DNA of 6,874 nucleotides from a virus (taxonomy: Duplodnaviria; Heunggongvirae; Uroviricota; Caudoviricetes): positions 1 to 6,874 of IMG/VR virus record IMGVR_UViG_2663763280_000005. The stretch is one strand, 5' to 3'. Positions 1 to 6,874 of this stretch are shown here, in pieces. Both the position numbers and the translations under genes were made by a program. The notes below the pieces were generated by a model. It searched no databases. It saw only the letters and a program-made list of their open reading frames with translations, and was not told the DNA's origin. How positions within the stretch are numbered: the stretch's first letter is position 1; each line of letters opens with the position of its first letter.

Positions 1-1
1 A

Positions 2-234
2 GGTGTTCTGGTTAGAACGGGTGTATTTGGTCAGGTTGTAGATGTCGATACCTGCTTCACCCGGATACATCTCGTCTTCGTTAACTTTGATAACGATACG
101 GGAAGCATCCACGTACTGAACGACACCACCACGTTTAGCTACCGCAGTTACACCGGAGTCAACGGCAACAGCACGTTCCATACCAGTACCAACCAGCGGC
201 TTATCAGCGCGCAGAGTCGGAACGGCCTGACGTT
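2..234 (-). CDS. rpoB: DNA-directed RNA polymerase beta subunit, internal fragment (no start or stop in window)
   Basis: Minus-strand translation reads ...[78 protein letters not shown], which matches my recollection of the conserved central RpoB segment. Homology stops abruptly near 234, where the frame runs into unrelated MFS sequence. Confidence 0.85.
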
Positions 235-438
235 GGCGCCGTGCCGCGTTCTTTTTGTGCATACCAGTCGGTGATCGACTTTACTCCCGCAGGCATAAAT
301 GGCGCTTCGCCAATACCCAGACCGATACGCATTAAAATAAAGTGGCTAAAAGAATTAACCATTCCTGTTAATGCCTGCATTAATGACCAGAATATTAAGC
401 CTGCGCCTAAAACAATTCGTGGGCCAAAGCGGTCTAGC
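235..438 (-). CDS. MFS-superfamily transporter, internal fragment (sugar-acid/anion:cation symporter-like)
   Basis: Minus-strand translation [67 protein letters not shown] carries the MFS loop 2-3 signature (GxGxGEAP...ERG) and resembles E. coli DgoT/GudP-type transporters. It is bounded by the n run on one side and the rpoB junction on the other. Confidence 0.55.
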
Positions 439-456
439 NNNACNGNAANGNNGNNN
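439..456. other. Run of ambiguous bases (n interleaved with a few called bases): assembly gap or low-quality join
   Basis: Sequence is nnnacngnaangnngnnn; different genes on opposite strands lie on either side. Confidence 0.95.
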
Positions 457-724
457 AAGCCGTGGCCTGACCGCATTGTTGATGGCGCTGCTGGCCATTT
501 CATTAAGTCGGGTAAAACCGCGGCAAGGGCGATTTTCAACGTTATTGCCACTGACGTTGCTGTTTATTGCCATTTTTTATGGCGGCGACGTCTGCCGTAC
601 GCTGGTGGCTAACGGCGCGATTCCCCTCATTCCTGGTTTGTGGTTAGTACCCGGACTCATGCTAATGGGCCTGCTGATGCTGGTCGCACGCGACTTCTCT
701 TTGCTGCAGAAATTTTCCCGATGA
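457..724 (+). CDS. LptF/LptG (YjgP/YjgQ) family permease, C-terminal fragment (5' end lost in n run)
   Basis: Translation ...LLMALLAISLSRVKPRQGRFSTLLPLTLLFIAIFYGG...LLQKFSR* aligns by eye with the E. coli LptF C-terminus (...VPLSVVNPRQGRVLSMLPAMLLYLLFF...). The stop overlaps the next start as ATGA (721-724), as in lptF-lptG. Confidence 0.5.
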
Positions 725-1460
725 ATGTTTTCAGTCGCTATTTAATCCGTCATCTCTTTCTCGGTTTTGCCGCCGCCGCAGGGCTATTGCTGCCGCTTTT
801 TACCACCTTCAACCTGATTAACGAACTGGATGATGTCAGCCCGGGCGGTTATCGCTGGACTCAGGCGGTGCTGGTGGTGCTAATGACCTTACCGCGCACA
901 CTGGTCGAACTTTCGCCGTTTATCGCGTTATTGGGTGGTATTGTTGGACTGGGGCAGTTATCGAAAAACAGTGAGCTTACCGCCATTCGCAGCACGGGGT
1001 TTTCTATCTTCCGTATTGCACTGGTGGCGCTGGTTGCCGGGATATTGTGGACTGTTTCGTTAGGCGCGATAGATGAGTGGGTGGCGTCGCCATTGCAGCA
1101 ACAGGCGTTGCAAATCAAATCGACCGCCACCGCGTTGGGGGAGGACGATGATATTACCGGCAATATGCTGTGGGCCAGGCGCGGTAATGAATTTGTGACG
1201 GTGAAATCGCTGAATGAACAGGGCCAGCCTGTGGGCGTGGAGATATTTCATTATCGCGACGATCTCTCGCTCGAATCCTACATTTATGCACGCAGTGCCA
1301 CCATTGAAGACGACAAAACGTGGATTCTGCATGGTGTGAATCATAAAAAATGGCTGAATGGCAAAGAAACGCTGGAAATATTAGATAATCTTGCCTGGCA
1401 ATCGACATTCACCAGTATGAATCTTGAAGAACTGTCGATGCCGGGCAATAGCTTTTCCGT
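721..1460 (+). CDS. LptF/LptG (YjgP/YjgQ) family permease, 3'-truncated
   Basis: ATG at 721. Hydrophobic N-terminal region with the [12 protein letters not shown] motif (compare LptG SELVVMQASGF), followed by a soluble beta-rich domain. The expected C-terminal TM bundle is missing: homology ends near 1460 where the phage terL fragment begins. It is divergent from canonical E. coli LptG, so probably a paralog or from another genus. Confidence 0.55.
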
Positions 1461-1573
1461 TCGTGGCGCTGGCAGGCCTGAATCACAAACTGGCAGGCCA
1501 CAATCTTTCCCCGCACGACATCACGGGCATACTGATTGGCAGCATTTACGTTGGGGTAAGATTTCCGGCTCAT
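1461..1573 (-). pseudogene. Phage terminase large subunit, N-terminal fragment only (~37 codons)
   Basis: ATG at 1573..1571 overlaps the terS stop as ATGA. Translation [37 protein letters not shown] resembles the conserved TerL N-terminus (A.QYA.DV..G.I.AC..V..ACQRHL.DL). Similarity is lost after about codon 37 and the frame stops at codon 55. Confidence 0.4.
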
Positions 1574-2064
1574 GATTCGATGATTTTCAGAAACGGGTTA
1601 GTGGCTTTCTTCTGCCCCGCCAGGCCTATCAGACGCTGGCGGCTGCTGGGGTCGAGTCCGAGCATTGCCCCCGTGCTGCTCATCTCGGACTCCTGTTCTT
1701 TCTTGGCGGTCAGCTCCGGGTTTTTGACCCTGCCGCCCATTGCGCCGGTGATGGTGTTGCCCTGGCTGGCAATATTTTTCACGGCACGTCGCCAGAACTC
1801 ATAGGCCACGCACCACCGCTCAAGTACCGCCAGGTCAGTCACGCACAGCAGGCCCTGACCGCAGAGTTCTTTGGTTGTCAGTTGCCACATGATCGTGGCG
1901 AGAGGGAGATCTTCTTCTGCGAACCACTCCGGTGGCTCAACACCTTTGATGGGCGTAAAAACAGGTTCATCTTTATTCAGGGCTCGCTTGCCGGGGTTTC
2001 CGGCCAGCGCCTTGCGCGCCGTTGGCTTGGGGCGACGCCCGGAACGCCCCGCCGTTCCAGCCAT
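1570..2064 (-). CDS. Phage terminase small subunit (P27 family)
   Basis: Translation [36 protein letters not shown]... is typical of the P27-family TerS N-terminus. AGGAG lies 8 nt upstream of the ATG at 2064. The upstream GTG at 2073 lacks an RBS. Confidence 0.85.
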
Positions 2065-2114
2065 ATGCGGCACTCCTGGTTAAATTTCATTTTTCGCGGG
2101 TATAAAAAAACGAT

Positions 2115-2163
2115 GGGGCGGGCAGTCCGGAAGACGTCAGGTCACAGGGATTTGACCCGCCCC
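2115..2163. repeat. GC-rich inverted-repeat element in the HNH-terS intergenic region; candidate cos (cohesive-end) site
   Basis: ggggcggg (2115-2122) pairs with cccgcccc (2156-2163). Inside are the palindrome gacgtc (2133-2138) and the pair ggtca (2140-2144) / tgacc (2153-2157). In HK97-like phages cos lies between the HNH gene and terS. Confidence 0.3.
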
Positions 2164-2189
2164 TCCCCTCAGACAGTTGAGAATTATTA

Positions 2190-2540
2190 TCACTTCAGCC
2201 GTTCACGGGCCGTCTTCGCCTTATGACACGGCCAGCACAGACTCTGCAGATTACAGTCGGCATCAGTGCCGCCATGCGCTTTAGGGATGATGTGGTCAAC
2301 GGCTTTCGCCTCACGCACCACACCGGCACGCAGACATAACTGACACAGGCCTTTGTCACGCTTCAGGACACGCGCGCGGATACTGTCCCACTTCGAACCG
2401 TAGCCGCGCTGATGACGGGATTGTCTAGGTTTGTATTGCTTCCAGCCTTCGCTTTTGTGGCTTTCGCAGTAGCCTGACGGGTCAGTCGTGGTATGGCGGC
2501 AACCGCGAACACGGCAGGCTTTTGGGATTCGTGGCGGCAT
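2190..2540 (-). CDS. Phage HNH endonuclease (packaging-associated)
   Basis: N-terminal Cys-rich zinc ribbon (CRVRGCRH...YCESH) and HNH core (VDHIIPKAHGGTDADCNLQSLCWPCHKAK). Start assigned to the ATG at 2540 (MPPRIPK), because the longer ORF to 2591 would run through the terminator hairpin. Confidence 0.85.
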   Translation of the reverse strand: MPPRIPKACRVRGCRHTTTDPSGYCESHKSEGWKQYKPRQSRHQRGYGSKWDSIRARVLKRDKGLCQLCLRAGVVREAKAVDHIIPKAHGGTDADCNLQSLCWPCHKAKTARERLK

Positions 2541-2575
2541 TGAAGACTCTCTTTGATGTGCATGTGTGGTGCGCA

Positions 2576-2600
2576 TAAAAAAGCCCCGCATGTGCGAGGC
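2576..2600 (-). terminator. Rho-independent terminator ending the AT-rich three-gene operon
   Basis: Minus-strand RNA is GCCUCGC-ACAU-GCGGGGC followed by UUUUUUA: a 7-bp GC-rich stem with one U-G wobble. On the plus strand the same position is a C-A mismatch, so the hairpin is better on the minus strand. It lies 26 nt downstream of the gene C stop. Confidence 0.6.
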
Positions 2601-2625
2601 TAATGATTTGCATAAATTTGTTGTT

Positions 2626-2928
2626 TCAGTCTAGCTTTATAAGTTTTACGGGTTTCTCGCCTGCTTCTACACACCAGTTGTTGTACTCATGTACAGCTCG
2701 CATCAGCTCACCATCATAGTGACCAACCTTCTCTACAAGGGATGTAAGCGATTGGGGGTTGAATTCAACAATTTCTGGTGGGATGAGGTTTACATTCCCT
2801 TTCTGATGAAGGGCATAGACAGCAGTACGTAAATCACCAATAGCTTTCATTCGTTCAGCATGAAGATCTTTGATCTTTTCATTAAGGATTTTGCAGCGAC
2901 CTATTGCTTCATAATTCAGTTCAGACAT
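2626..2928 (-). CDS. Hypothetical protein, 100 aa (moron operon gene C), no recognised family
   Basis: ATG at 2928 preceded by AGGAGG with a 5-nt spacer. AT-rich codon usage matches genes A and B. Translation MSELNYEAIGRCKILNEKIKDLHAERMKAIGDL... is a soluble, helix-prone sequence. Confidence 0.6.
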   Translation of the reverse strand: MSELNYEAIGRCKILNEKIKDLHAERMKAIGDLRTAVYALHQKGNVNLIPPEIVEFNPQSLTSLVEKVGHYDGELMRAVHEYNNWCVEAGEKPVKLIKLD

Positions 2929-2973
2929 TCTGCCCTCCTATTAAAATTCGTTATCTTTAGAGATAACTCTATA

Positions 2974-3360
2974 TTAAGAATGATTTTCTTTATCCTTAAA
3001 ATAATACCCAATTATAAATCCTAATGAAGTACCAAGGGCAGTAATCATTATTGACAATACCTTTTCCAGCTCGAGTGGCTTTAAATATTGAACGTAATCA
3101 TCAACACCTTTGCTCTTTAACTCTAAAGCCCAATTCACAACAGAATTATTATACCAAAGAACAAAAAGACAGCTAAAAATAAGAAGGCAAAAAAAGAACC
3201 AGAGAAACGTAATAGTTAAGGCGCTTCGTGTTTTACCATCAGTATGCTTAGAGTTAACAGCATTTTCCTCTGCTTTTCCAGCTGACTCTTCAATTTTTTT
3301 ATTTTCGATCCTGGCTACTTTTAATCTATCAAGGATGCTTCCAACATCTTCAATCGACAT
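2974..3360 (-). CDS. Hypothetical small membrane protein, 128 aa, two predicted TM helices (moron operon gene B)
   Basis: ATG at 3360 preceded by GGGAGGG 7 nt upstream. It overlaps the gene A stop by 11 nt. Hydrophobic stretches are ALTITFLWFFFCLLIFSCLFVLWY and VLSIMITALGTSLGFIIGYYF. The ORF-track start (TTG at 3378) is less likely. Confidence 0.6.
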   Translation of the reverse strand: MSIEDVGSILDRLKVARIENKKIEESAGKAEENAVNSKHTDGKTRSALTITFLWFFFCLLIFSCLFVLWYNNSVVNWALELKSKGVDDYVQYLKPLELEKVLSIMITALGTSLGFIIGYYFKDKENHS

Positions 3361-3661
3361 TTGAATTCCCTCCCGCAATTTTAGATAAGGAGTTCATAGC
3401 CTCAACATAGTCTGAACTTAAAGACTCATTATATTTTTCAATACTCGAAATTCCATTTTTCACAACTGGGCTAATTTTTATGTAGAGAGCAACCTGTCCT
3501 TTTTCAAACTCAGAGAGATTATCACCAGAGTTTTTGCGGATATCCTCAATTGAGTTCAATAGCTCTGTAATAAGAACCATGTGAGCATCAGCCATCGCAG
3601 CAGATGCTGCTCTGAACTCCGCAATCTTTTCAATAGCTTGTTTGATTTTTATGTTTGACAT
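3350..3661 (-). CDS. Hypothetical protein, 103 aa (moron operon gene A), no recognised family
   Basis: ATG at 3661 preceded by GGAGA 6 nt upstream. Translation MSNIKIKQAIEKIAEFRAASAAMADAHMVLITELLNSIEDIRKNSG... is soluble and helix-prone. It is the first gene downstream of an AT-rich non-coding leader. Confidence 0.6.
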   Translation of the reverse strand: MSNIKIKQAIEKIAEFRAASAAMADAHMVLITELLNSIEDIRKNSGDNLSEFEKGQVALYIKISPVVKNGISSIEKYNESLSSDYVEAMNSLSKIAGGNSNVD

Positions 3662-3922
3662 ATTATCTCCATCATATAATGTTCATATTCTCTCACTTAT
3701 CATCAAAAATGACAAGCTAAGGGAACCACTTAATTTATATGTGGAAAGAATGATTAAATTTTTCAATCTTAATATATACATCACATCAATTATTAAAAGT
3801 AACAAAACACTTGTCTACTTATAACTTTATTGTTTTTCATATTTAGGTAAGCATGAGCAATAATTATATCGTATTCTGTGTGGTATATTATATTCATCTA
3901 CTAACAAGAAAAATATACCACT
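3662..3922 (-). promoter_or_regulatory. AT-rich non-coding leader; probable promoter/operator region for the three-gene operon
   Basis: About 260 nt with no convincing ORF and several TATA-like hexamers on the minus strand. Contains a 9-bp perfect inverted repeat, gtggtatat (3880-3888) / atataccac (3913-3921). I could not pin down a single -35/-10 pair. Confidence 0.3.
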
Positions 3923-4193
3923 TCAAATTGTACGTTTGTATTTCTTATGCATACCGCGCTCAACAGAGTCACCAGGAATATGGTTAATAGTCTGCTGTAT
4001 ATTTCTGGCCTCTTCCGTTGCCTCTACACGGTGTCCTGCTGCTGAGTGCTTAGCCGCTGCGTTAACTTCAGTGTATAACAGAGCAGTTTTAACCTCTTCT
4101 TTTACTAGTGCCACGGATACGCCCTAGGCCAACAACTCCAGCGATAACAGTGATAACCAAAGCAACCAGTCCAATAAATCTTTCGATACTCAT
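3923..4193 (-). pseudogene. Possible frameshifted gene for a small membrane-anchored protein (two overlapping frames)
   Basis: ATG at 4193 gives MSIERFIGLVALVITVIAGVVGLGRIRGTSKRRG* (stop 4091..4089). A +1 frame opens 4 codons before the track's GTG at 4114 and gives ...ALVKEEVKTALLYTEVNAAAKHSAAGHRVEATEEARNIQQTINHIPGDSVERGMHKKYKRTI* (to 3923). One indel near 4110-4125 would fuse them into a protein of about 90 aa with an N-terminal TM anchor. No clear SD precedes the ATG at 4193. Confidence 0.3.
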
Positions 4194-4270
4194 TGCATCA
4201 GAACAGATTTTGCCAAATTAACAGAACGGGCGTGGTATAACACTTCGAAAACACGATCAATCTGCCTCTT

Positions 4271-4708
4271 TTAATTCATGCATTGAGTTCTGATGTATTC
4301 CTGTAGGTAATTAACCTGTGCGGTTATCCTGTCGATTCCACTTCGGAGACGGTAATAATTGAATTCAGCATCTGCTGTAAGTCCTGGGCTTTCTCCATCG
4401 CCCATGCCGCTGGCTCTGGTCGTTGATTTTGCACAGGTGGCGGCGACTTGCAGGCGCTTACGCCCAGAAGAAACATCAGCACGGAGACTTTCGATAGTCG
4501 CGTTAGCATCAGCAAGCTCCTTTGTGTATCTGGCGTCGAGTTCTGCTACATCACGTTGACGCTTCTGCATATCAGCGATGATGGATGTGGCTTTATCGCG
4601 CTGTTCTTTGTAGGTAATGGCGTTATCACGGTAATGATTAACAGCCCATGACAGGCAGACGATGATGCAGATAACAAGAGCGGAGATAATCGCGGTGACT
4701 CTGCTCAT
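4271..4708 (-). CDS. Rz: Spanin inner-membrane subunit (i-spanin) Rz
   Basis: N-terminus [34 protein letters not shown] matches lambda Rz as I recall it. ATG overlaps the R stop as ATGA (4705-4708). The C-terminal half diverges from lambda Rz. Confidence 0.9.
4324..4515 (-). CDS. Rz1: Spanin outer-membrane lipoprotein (o-spanin) Rz1, embedded in the +1 frame of Rz
   Basis: Translation [22 protein letters not shown]|[13 protein letters not shown]... has a signal peptide, a lipobox (LLGVSAC) and a proline-rich mature region, and lies wholly inside Rz in a different frame, as with lambda Rz1. Confidence 0.7.
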
Positions 4709-5181
4709 GCCTCAATCTCTCTTACCGTTCCGCCAGCTTCTTTGAATTTTGCAATCAGGCTGTCAGCCTTATGCTCGAACTGACCGTAACCAGCCCCCGG
4801 CAGTGAAGCCCAGATATTGCTGCAACGGTCGATAGCCTGACGAATATCGCCGCGATCAATCATTGGTAAAGCGCCACGCTCTTTAATCTGCTGCAGCGCA
4901 ACAGCATCCTGGCTTTTCGGAGAGAAGTCTTTCAGGCCAAGCTGCTTACGGTAGGCATCCCACCAACGGGAAAGAAGCTGGTAGCGTCCGGCGGCTGTTG
5001 ATTTGAGTTTGGGGTTTAGCGTGACAAGTTTGCGAGGGTGATCGGAGTAATCAGTGAAGAGTTCACCACCGACAATAACGTCATAACCGTGGTTACGTGT
5101 CGGTTGTCGTCCGTTATCCGTTCCTTCTGACCAAGCCACCATATCAAGGAAAGCTTTACGCTGGGAATTTAGTACCTGCAT
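4705..5181 (-). CDS. R: Endolysin, lambda R-type lytic transglycosylase
   Basis: The 158-aa product [61 protein letters not shown]... is near-identical to lambda R ([42 protein letters not shown]...). AAGGAG lies 6 nt upstream of the ATG at 5181. Confidence 0.95.
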
Positions 5182-5184
5182 AAA

Positions 5185-5511
5185 TTACTCCTTAGAGCCA
5201 CCAAATTTGTTACCGATTACTCGCATTGCAGCCCCACGAATAGCATCGACACCGATCAGCCCCACCCCACCACCAATGGCAACAGAAAGTGATTTAGGCC
5301 ATCCGACATACTCAAGAGCGGATGCAAAGGTCAGCGTCAGAGCGCCACATAGCAAAATCTCAAGCGTTTTTCGCTTCCAGCCACCACCACCGCCAAAATA
5401 GGCGATGCGCAAACCAGCCATAACGATCGACATAATCACTGCGCCCAGCGGTGTGTCTCCACGCCACCAGCTCTGGACCAACTCCAACCAGGTATTTGGG
5501 TTATGAGGCAT
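5185..5511 (-). CDS. Holin (three-TM class I, lambda S-like architecture)
   Basis: 108 aa directly upstream of the endolysin, with a 3-nt gap. Three hydrophobic segments (PLGAVIMSIVMAGLRIAYF, LEILLCGALTLTFASALEYVG, LSVAIGGGVGLIGVDAI) and a charged C-terminal tail. There is no dual-start motif: the in-frame upstream codons are Q, L, stop. Confidence 0.75.
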   Translation of the reverse strand: MPHNPNTWLELVQSWWRGDTPLGAVIMSIVMAGLRIAYFGGGGGWKRKTLEILLCGALTLTFASALEYVGWPKSLSVAIGGGVGLIGVDAIRGAAMRVIGNKFGGSKE

Positions 5512-5650
5512 TTGTAGTTATCTCTCACCTCGCTGATACAGCAGGTGCAAATTGAGGGAACATCATGTACCGCAAATCAGAAGCGGAAACGTCAAAGAAG
5601 CCGAACCAATGGATAACTGCGGAATAGGCCAGAACCAACGAATCCCCAGC

Positions 5651-5684
5651 CCCAGAAACGACAAAACCCGCTCGACGCGGGTTT
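5651..5684 (-). terminator. Intrinsic terminator-like hairpin upstream of the holin (tR'-like late terminator candidate)
   Basis: Perfect 8-bp stem aaacccgc (5664-5671) / gcgggttt (5677-5684) with loop tcgac. On the minus-strand RNA it is followed by UUUUGUCGUUUCU (5663..5651). On the plus strand the T tract is shorter (tttaag). Confidence 0.45.
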
Positions 5685-5800
5685 AAGCTGTGTGGCGAAG
5701 TAACCACTCTTAACAGATTATGATAGTTTTTGCGTACGCGTTAGTAATTTATTATGCTCTTTACAATTGTTAGCTTAACCGCATGGAATTGACCAAAAAA

Positions 5801-6720
5801 ATGAGCAAAGTAAGCATACGCCACGTAATCGTTCATGAGCTCTTAAAAGAATCTAATAAAGACTTCGATCACTCCAAACCATACAATCTTCGTGATACAG
5901 AACTAGATAAAACAAATGATATAGTAAAAAAATTAGTAGACGGTGTTATTGATTTGTATGGTTCAAAAGGGAACTCAGCGCATTATGGTGTTTTTATTAA
6001 AAATAAAACAAAGCAAGGCCCTATACCAGAACTATTTCATAAATACTCTTTAGTTCAACAATCTGTTTCAAGTGATTTCATTGAATTATCGAAGGAAGTT
6101 ATGAAACAAATGTATAAATCTGCTCAAGAGCAGATTTGGGCTTCTGGAGGATATGTTGTTTTTACTGATTATATTTTATCTGGTTTCCGTTATCTATTGG
6201 TTACAATGATCAAAAAAACTAATGGCGTAACTATTAGTGAAAATTTAGAGCCAGAGGAAATGATTCACTTAGAACTTGGTAATATTAACCAAGCAGCAAA
6301 AATAAATTTCAGATATTATGAAGAATACCAAAAAGCAGATGACTTAAAAAAAACAGACTTAAGTTATCTAAGCTTTATAAGCAAAACTACGGGACAGTCA
6401 GCGGCAGCATATTTTATAGCAGCATTAGGATGTGACAAGGGGATTGCTTCAGCAGGTGCAACCCGTAAGTTACCAGATGAAATAAGGCGTTTCTTTAAGA
6501 AAGAACCTCTTTTAAAAAATCAAGCAGAGTCATTTAGAAATGATGTTATCAAATACTTAGAAAAGCAATTTGACAACGAGCACTCTGCAAGGCTTTCTGA
6601 TATCGAATCGCTTGCTTCAGGCCATATGTCCGATTTAAAAGAGGAAGAAAAAACAGAACTTGTTGATAAATTAATGAAACACCTCAATAGTGAGGAAGTC
6701 AGAATCCCATCAGAGTTCGT
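5801..6720 (+). CDS. NA37/NdpA (YejK) family nucleoid-associated protein, divergent low-GC paralog; 3' end uncertain
   Basis: From the ATG at 5801 the translation MSKVSIRHVIVHELLKE...ASGGYVVFTDYILSGFRYLLVTMIKK...YLSFISKTTGQSAAAYFIAALG aligns by eye with E. coli YejK/NdpA (MSLDINQIALHQLIKRDE...[25 protein letters not shown]...[22 protein letters not shown]). The true C-terminus is obscured, because the open frame runs through n 6723 into unrelated sequence. Confidence 0.6.
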
Positions 6721-6723
6721 AAN

Positions 6724-6873
6724 AGTAAATTGCCCTGCGACGGGTCAAAAGCATTCAGCCCCCAAATGCGTAAGTCTGGCCTGTTCCGCACTCAACTACG
6801 GGCGATTTTGCGCGCTGCCAGTTTTGGCAACGCCCAGTTGATGATCCCGATGGTTCACAGCCTCGATCAGATC
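6724..6873 (+). CDS. PEP-utilising enzyme (PTS enzyme I family) internal fragment
   Basis: Translation in the frame of the codon at 6781 gives ...[32 protein letters not shown], which resembles PtsI ...[30 protein letters not shown]. It is a family member, not PtsI itself. It runs off the window end. Confidence 0.5.
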
Positions 6874-6874
6874 T

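Follow-up and report, generated by a model that had tools for sequence, protein, structure and literature searches.

Sequence comparison indicates that the window (the whole stretch of DNA analysed here, 6,874 bp in length) is very probably a chimeric contig in a public E. coli draft assembly, stitched together from unrelated pieces of chromosome. The join between rpoB and an MFS transporter gene that the initial annotation had singled out near the left end is present in the sequence, yet it is an assembly or library artefact and represents no biological rpoB-transporter fusion. An exact look-up of the fused open reading frame (ORF) at positions 721-1575 returned two contigs, one of which, CCCB01000725.1 (assembly GCA_000945835.1), is identical to the window over its entire 6,874 bp.

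Within these 6.9 kb, at least six blocks are connected by five joins (J1 to J5, from left to right). A 6.3-kb core, made up of an island carrying lptF/lptG paralogs and the lysis/terminase segment of a prophage, bears fragments of rpoB (235 bp) and of the MFS gene (203 bp) on its left end and fragments of menF (52 bp) and fryA (99 bp) on its right end. The rpoB, MFS, lptFG, menF and fryA pieces are each 100% identical to genome M8, where they lie at 4.6296 Mb (minus strand), 4.6036 Mb (minus), 3.5556 Mb (minus), 2.6791 Mb (plus) and 2.7917 Mb (minus) respectively, and each neighbouring chromosomal block matches at near 100% identity loci that are non-adjacent in closed E. coli genomes. Every breakpoint falls within an ORF, with no regard for gene structure (lptG is truncated at codon 248, terL near codon 36) and with the reading frame lost between rpoB and MFS. 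No IS ends, transposon ends, att sites, target duplications or long repeats were found at the joins of the window, and the repeats present in positions 1-1700 are only short chance ones.

The rpoB, MFS and lptFG blocks are co-oriented and follow chromosomal order in genomes M8, GE3 and 600468, skipping 25.8 kb and 1.05 Mb. Taken alone, the collinearity of these first three pieces in M8 could hint at a non-random process; menF and the later blocks break the pattern, and we regard it as probably a coincidence.

The rpoB and MFS transporter fragments

Positions 1-235 (minus strand) are an internal fragment of rpoB that runs off the contig end. A megablast search of 5,426 complete E. coli genomes matched it at 235/235 positions (E=1e-118) in thousands of genomes, placing it at nucleotides 2056-2290 of a gene of 4029 nt (all of codons 686-763 and the initial base of codon 764; 4629572-4629806 in M8), and it also gives a weak Pfam match to PF00562. 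Positions 236-438 (minus strand) are an internal fragment of an accessory MFS transporter gene that natively lies between oxyR and manD; here the same search returned 203/203 identical positions (E=3e-101) in 1,869 genomes, corresponding to nucleotides 243-445 (codons 82-148) of the 1284-nt gene, with a PF07690 match at 1.4e-14. The initial annotation had placed the end of rpoB at about 234 and read on into MFS coding sequence on the same strand in another frame: strand and frame change (+1) hold, while the last rpoB base is at 235. As it had also remarked, both fragments lack a start and a stop. On alignment to both native loci, the native continuations of rpoB and MFS each diverge exactly between 235 and 236, so that J1 is blunt, with 0 nt shared. 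A predicted 87-aa ORF (positions 2-262) crosses this join.

The two loci are co-oriented in M8 and separated by 25,816 bp. The interval contains the first 685 codons of rpoB, rplKAJL, nusG, secE, tufB and four tRNAs, followed by coaA, birA, murB, an rrn operon, murI, btuB, trmA, fabR, sthA and oxyR. The essentiality of genes skipped here is long established in E. coli and, because the interval holds them, a 25.8-kb deletion at J1 would not be viable; the arrangement is viable only if the fragments are extra copies. The strain behind the contig must carry an intact rpoB elsewhere. It had been argued from the letters alone that an essential gene cannot be broken in this way and that the window is a composite, and the alignment to closed genomes that had been proposed as a check supports both statements: the pieces lie far apart with essential genes between them, and the exact arrangement occurs in none of the 5,426 complete E. 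coli genomes (0 records covering at least 80% of positions 1-438). A 40-mer spanning the join was absent from the GTDB species representatives, IMG/VR and the JGI metagenome contigs, and no IS end, target-site duplication or repeat flanks the breakpoint. Among all genomes and collections searched, J1 and J2 are confined to CCCB01000725.1.

The ambiguous stretch beside lptF

The MFS fragment is followed at 439-456 by a stretch that reads nnnacngnaangnngnnn, which the initial annotation had described as an 18-nt run of n. The length is right, although the stretch comprises 11 N and seven called bases and is not a gap. The native lptF paralog reads CGAACTGCAATGGCGACA at the same place; all seven called bases match it in register with the length conserved (chance of such a match, p=6e-5), and the second contig returned by the look-up, CDRT01000207.1, carries the same 18 native bases fully called. 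Because the called bases match lptF in register, 439-456 is a badly called part of lptF (plus strand) and no spacer or gap, in place of the uninterrupted N run for unknown sequence that a scaffold gap would show. Since the stretch belongs to lptF, the join between MFS and lptF (J2) is direct, lying between 438 and 439, where the two sequences have 2 nt (GC) in common. The corresponding loci of M8 are separated by 1.05 Mb. The LptF-like gene announced on the opposite strand beyond the Ns is indeed there, its 3′ end (about nucleotides 786-1071; PF03739; identity to M8) occupying 439-724 on the plus strand.

An alternative model, in which a spurious 18-nt overlap of the native MFS continuation with lptF was collapsed into one consensus and N was written wherever the two disagree, was rejected: at positions 3 and 8 of the stretch the native sequences agree and yet N is written, at position 5 they disagree and yet C is called, and the model fails again at position 5156 of CDRT01000207.1. 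Forms of the model in shifted registers fail by inspection.

The lptF/lptG paralogs and their join to the prophage

Overlapping the end of lptF, positions 721-1464 (plus strand) encode the first 744 nt of an lptG paralog (codons 1-248 of 359; PF03739 at 2e-43), and 457-1464 as a whole is 100% identical to M8. Both genes are LPS permease paralogs that belong to an accessory island flanked by yghO and yghS; the permeases to which they are paralogous are essential. In M8 this island (3551117-3560962) also contains genes for a serine palmitoyltransferase, an acyl carrier protein, a fatty acyl-AMP ligase, an epimerase, a YtfJ-family protein and an 'LPS biosynthesis' protein, and it has the look of a gene cluster for lipid synthesis and export. 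It is carried by about 4,100 of the 5,426 complete genomes.

At J3, between 1464 and 1465, lptG passes directly into a phage terL gene with 1 nt shared and no Ns, creating a fused ORF of 284 aa (721-1575) in which residues 1-248 of LptG are followed by 36 residues read from antisense terL. This join is common, base for base, to CCCB01000725.1 and CDRT01000207.1 (positions 4174-4175 of the latter), which belong to separate deposited assemblies. It was absent from the 5,426 complete genomes, GTDB, IMG/VR, the JGI metagenomes and every other indexed contig; among truncated LptG proteins of the same 90% cluster, ten others all keep native sequence at this point and none has a fusion of this type. 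A chimera formed at random in a library would not turn up twice unless the assemblies share data, and therefore J3 may be real: either the two assemblies stem from one strain of a rare lineage that bears a true scar, or they have data in common. In a weaker form of the real-structure reading discussed below, only this join would be real, as a lineage-specific scar of illegitimate recombination common to two isolates. Whichever applies, the verdict on positions 200-460 is unchanged, because the sister contig has native lptF at the site where the window has the MFS-lptF join.

The prophage segment and the right end of the contig

A prophage segment truncated at both ends fills 1465-6722, mainly on the minus strand, as recognized by Pfam matches and by identity to prophages of PapRG-04-4 (99.8% over 1464-4574) and 1008S13 (99.6% over 5663-6722). 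It contains the first ~36 codons of terL (from 1465, minus), terS (1570-2064, minus), an HNH gene (2190-2540, minus), an Rz/endolysin/holin group (4271-5511, minus) and, on the plus strand, the gene for an NA37 nucleoid-associated protein (5783-6722) that is cut at 6722. The closest prophage relative occupies thrW/proA, a site distant from the yghO-yghS island.

Between the HNH gene and the Rz/endolysin genes lies an AT-rich block (2626-4114, minus) of four ORFs (100, 128, 103 and 63 aa), kept at 99.8% in the PapRG-04-4 prophage. The 100-, 128- and 103-aa ORFs, the three to which this result applies, had no Pfam match at curated thresholds, and the block may be a moron or cargo cassette. The slot between holin and antiterminator Q varies within this prophage family: it is filled by the NA37 gene in the window (5783-6722), by a KAP-family NTPase in PapRG-04-4 (L008 10356-11687) and by a DNA methyltransferase, NA37 and a hypothetical protein in 1008S13 (L009 9165-13196).

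The phage sequence gives way at J4, between 6722 and 6723, to a single N at 6723 and a 52-nt internal fragment of menF (6723-6775, minus; 100% identical to M8), with 4 nt (GTAA) shared at the join. Relative to the other chromosomal pieces the menF fragment is inverted and out of order, lying beyond fryA. At J5, between 6775 and 6776, 1 nt is shared without any N, and the contig ends with 99 nt from the interior of a fryA-type PEP-protein phosphotransferase gene annotated as ptsP (6776-6874, plus), which runs off the contig end. A predicted 352-aa ORF (5783-6841) is a fusion of NA37, menF and fryA sequence. The warning in the initial annotation that arguments from genomic context are unsafe across its joins proved well founded, as J3, J4 and J5 add three further unnatural joins in the same window.

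A second chimeric contig

The sister contig CDRT01000207.1 (assembly GCA_001373215.1; 7,810 bp) consists for 4,174 bp of the native yghO-yghS island and is identical to positions 457-2456 of the window at every called base, its lptF being native and intact where the window has J2. It breaks within the HNH gene, which is intact in the window, and continues into an infB fragment of ~161-166 bp (region 5156-5334), then into a 1.6-kb pdxY-tyrS piece on the strand opposite to lptFG, and then into a further piece. Like the window, this contig is a chimera that contains part of an essential gene, in this case infB, and this suggests that both assemblies hold widespread chimeras. Its chimeric ends differ from those of the window and include the infB fragment, which points to a process that acted on the data and not on a genome. 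A literature search on both assemblies under their accession prefixes returned nothing relevant.

Origin of the joins

The Ns are tied to the joins in both contigs. All 12 in the window belong to clusters that begin right at a join (439 and 6723; chance ~2e-6 for both clusters), and in CDRT01000207.1 all eight lie within 10 nt of one (5156 and 5160 near the join at 5166, and 6916-6925 around that at 6918; chance 1e-4). Exact microhomology amounts to 0, 2, 1, 4 and 1 nt at the five window joins and to 5 and 1 nt at two joins of CDRT01000207.1; at least 4 nt are thus shared at two of these seven joins, more than random blunt joins would give (binomial p=0.005; expected mean 0.67 nt). The short blocks (52, 99, ~161-166, 203 and 235 bp) are of the size of fragments or reads and are attached to the ends of longer cores that are genuine.

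Overlaps of 0-5 nt are too short for an overlap or k-mer assembler, and therefore the joins were not built from correct reads; for the same reason we infer that chimeric molecules had entered the data. Microhomology of this kind is what template switching or illegitimate ligation typically leaves. Most likely, physically chimeric templates would have arisen during library preparation, by insert-to-insert ligation or by polymerase template switching, and would have found their way into the contig at breaks in the true path. An alternative origin could be a permissive step of contig-end extension or gap closing. The Ns beside some of the joins may mark spots with little consistent read support.

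Two more specific routes were discarded. Ligation at restriction sites came to mind from GCGC at J1 and J3, and no motif is common to the seven joins. A mate-pair circularisation junction, considered for the 25.8-kb skip at J1, would jump backwards, whereas the coordinates imply a deletion-like jump.

Alternative explanations

The initial annotation had offered a scaffolding error, a chimeric contig or deliberate concatenation, and among these the chimeric contig fits best. A scaffolding join, with rpoB/MFS and lptF as true contigs, the N run as the gap and an adjacency that is roughly right, is very unlikely. It would account for Ns at 439-456 and at 6723, a single N being the way in which certain scaffolders denote a gap of zero or negative length. 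It is refuted by the register test of 439-456, in which the seven called bases match lptF and the stretch has its native length; moreover, MFS and lptF are 1.05 Mb apart in M8, J1 and J5 are free of any N, and 'contigs' of 203 and 52 bp from unique genes are implausible members of a scaffold. The window is a deposited WGS contig and so not a sequence concatenated for the present analysis. A deliberate or pipeline concatenation, in which small contigs were ordered along a reference or the gaps were stripped from a reference-guided consensus, has a probability close to nil. The order and common orientation of rpoB, MFS and lptFG in M8, GE3 and 600468 would follow from it, but the test of order and orientation fails with menF, which is inverted and beyond fryA, and with the pdxY-tyrS piece of the sister contig, which is on the strand opposite to lptFG. 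The location of the closest prophage at thrW/proA, away from the yghO-yghS island, speaks against it too, and the record itself is not a pseudomolecule but one contig, number 725, in an ordinary WGS set.

It is also highly improbable that the arrangement is a real structure, in which extra short copies of rpoB, MFS, menF and fryA sequence were illegitimately joined onto a rearranged lptG-prophage locus. Such a structure would leave viability intact if the fragments are duplicates and the essential genes are whole elsewhere; the recurrence of the lptG-terL join in two deposited assemblies agrees with it, and microhomologies of 0-5 nt resemble the scars of end-joining. Against this, the rpoB-MFS and MFS-lptF joins occur in one contig only, and are absent from the 5,426 closed genomes and from all other indexed contigs; the sister contig has native lptF at the place of the MFS-lptF join. 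Ns cluster at the joins, and the ends of the sister contig differ and include the infB fragment, which points to a process acting on data. We therefore retain the reading of the window as a chimeric contig.

Implications and comparison with known systems

Read as a genome, the window would place rpoB beside a transporter, fuse LptG to a phage and fuse a nucleoid-associated protein to menF/fryA, and all three inferences would be false. It tells nothing about biology, and its value is one of quality control only. The artefact has spread, since gene callers have predicted the fused ORFs of CCCB01000725.1, and the 284-aa LptG-phage product is already in a collection of 15 billion proteins. Contigs of GCA_000945835.1 and GCA_001373215.1 are suspect in context-based scans. 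Because every N in the two contigs adjoins a join, isolated Ns elsewhere in these assemblies are possible markers of further joins.

Assembly evaluators class misassembled contigs by relocation, inversion and translocation breakpoints. The window resembles such contigs in its blocks of ~100% identity from distant or inverted loci, in its breaks in the middle of ORFs and in having no mobile element at them. It differs from usual misassemblies in packing five joins into 6.9 kb, with blocks down to 52-235 bp, and, whereas most de Bruijn misassemblies occur at repeats, its joins lie outside any repeat. With scaffold gaps it shares the presence of Ns between two unrelated blocks, but here the Ns are interspersed with in-register lptF bases, nothing is missing and the join is direct.

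Chimeric templates arise when library inserts are ligated to one another at blunt ends, or by template switching during PCR or phi29 amplification. The likeness of the window to chimeric sequencing templates lies in its abrupt junctions with 0-5 nt shared, in blocks of the size of sheared fragments and in the position of the chimeric blocks at the contig ends. MDA chimeras, reportedly treated by Lasken and Stockwell in 2007, mostly connect inverted, nearby loci, whereas J1 and J2 are direct and span 26 kb and 1 Mb. The window is also unlike chimeric templates in that one of its joins, J3, recurs in a second assembly.
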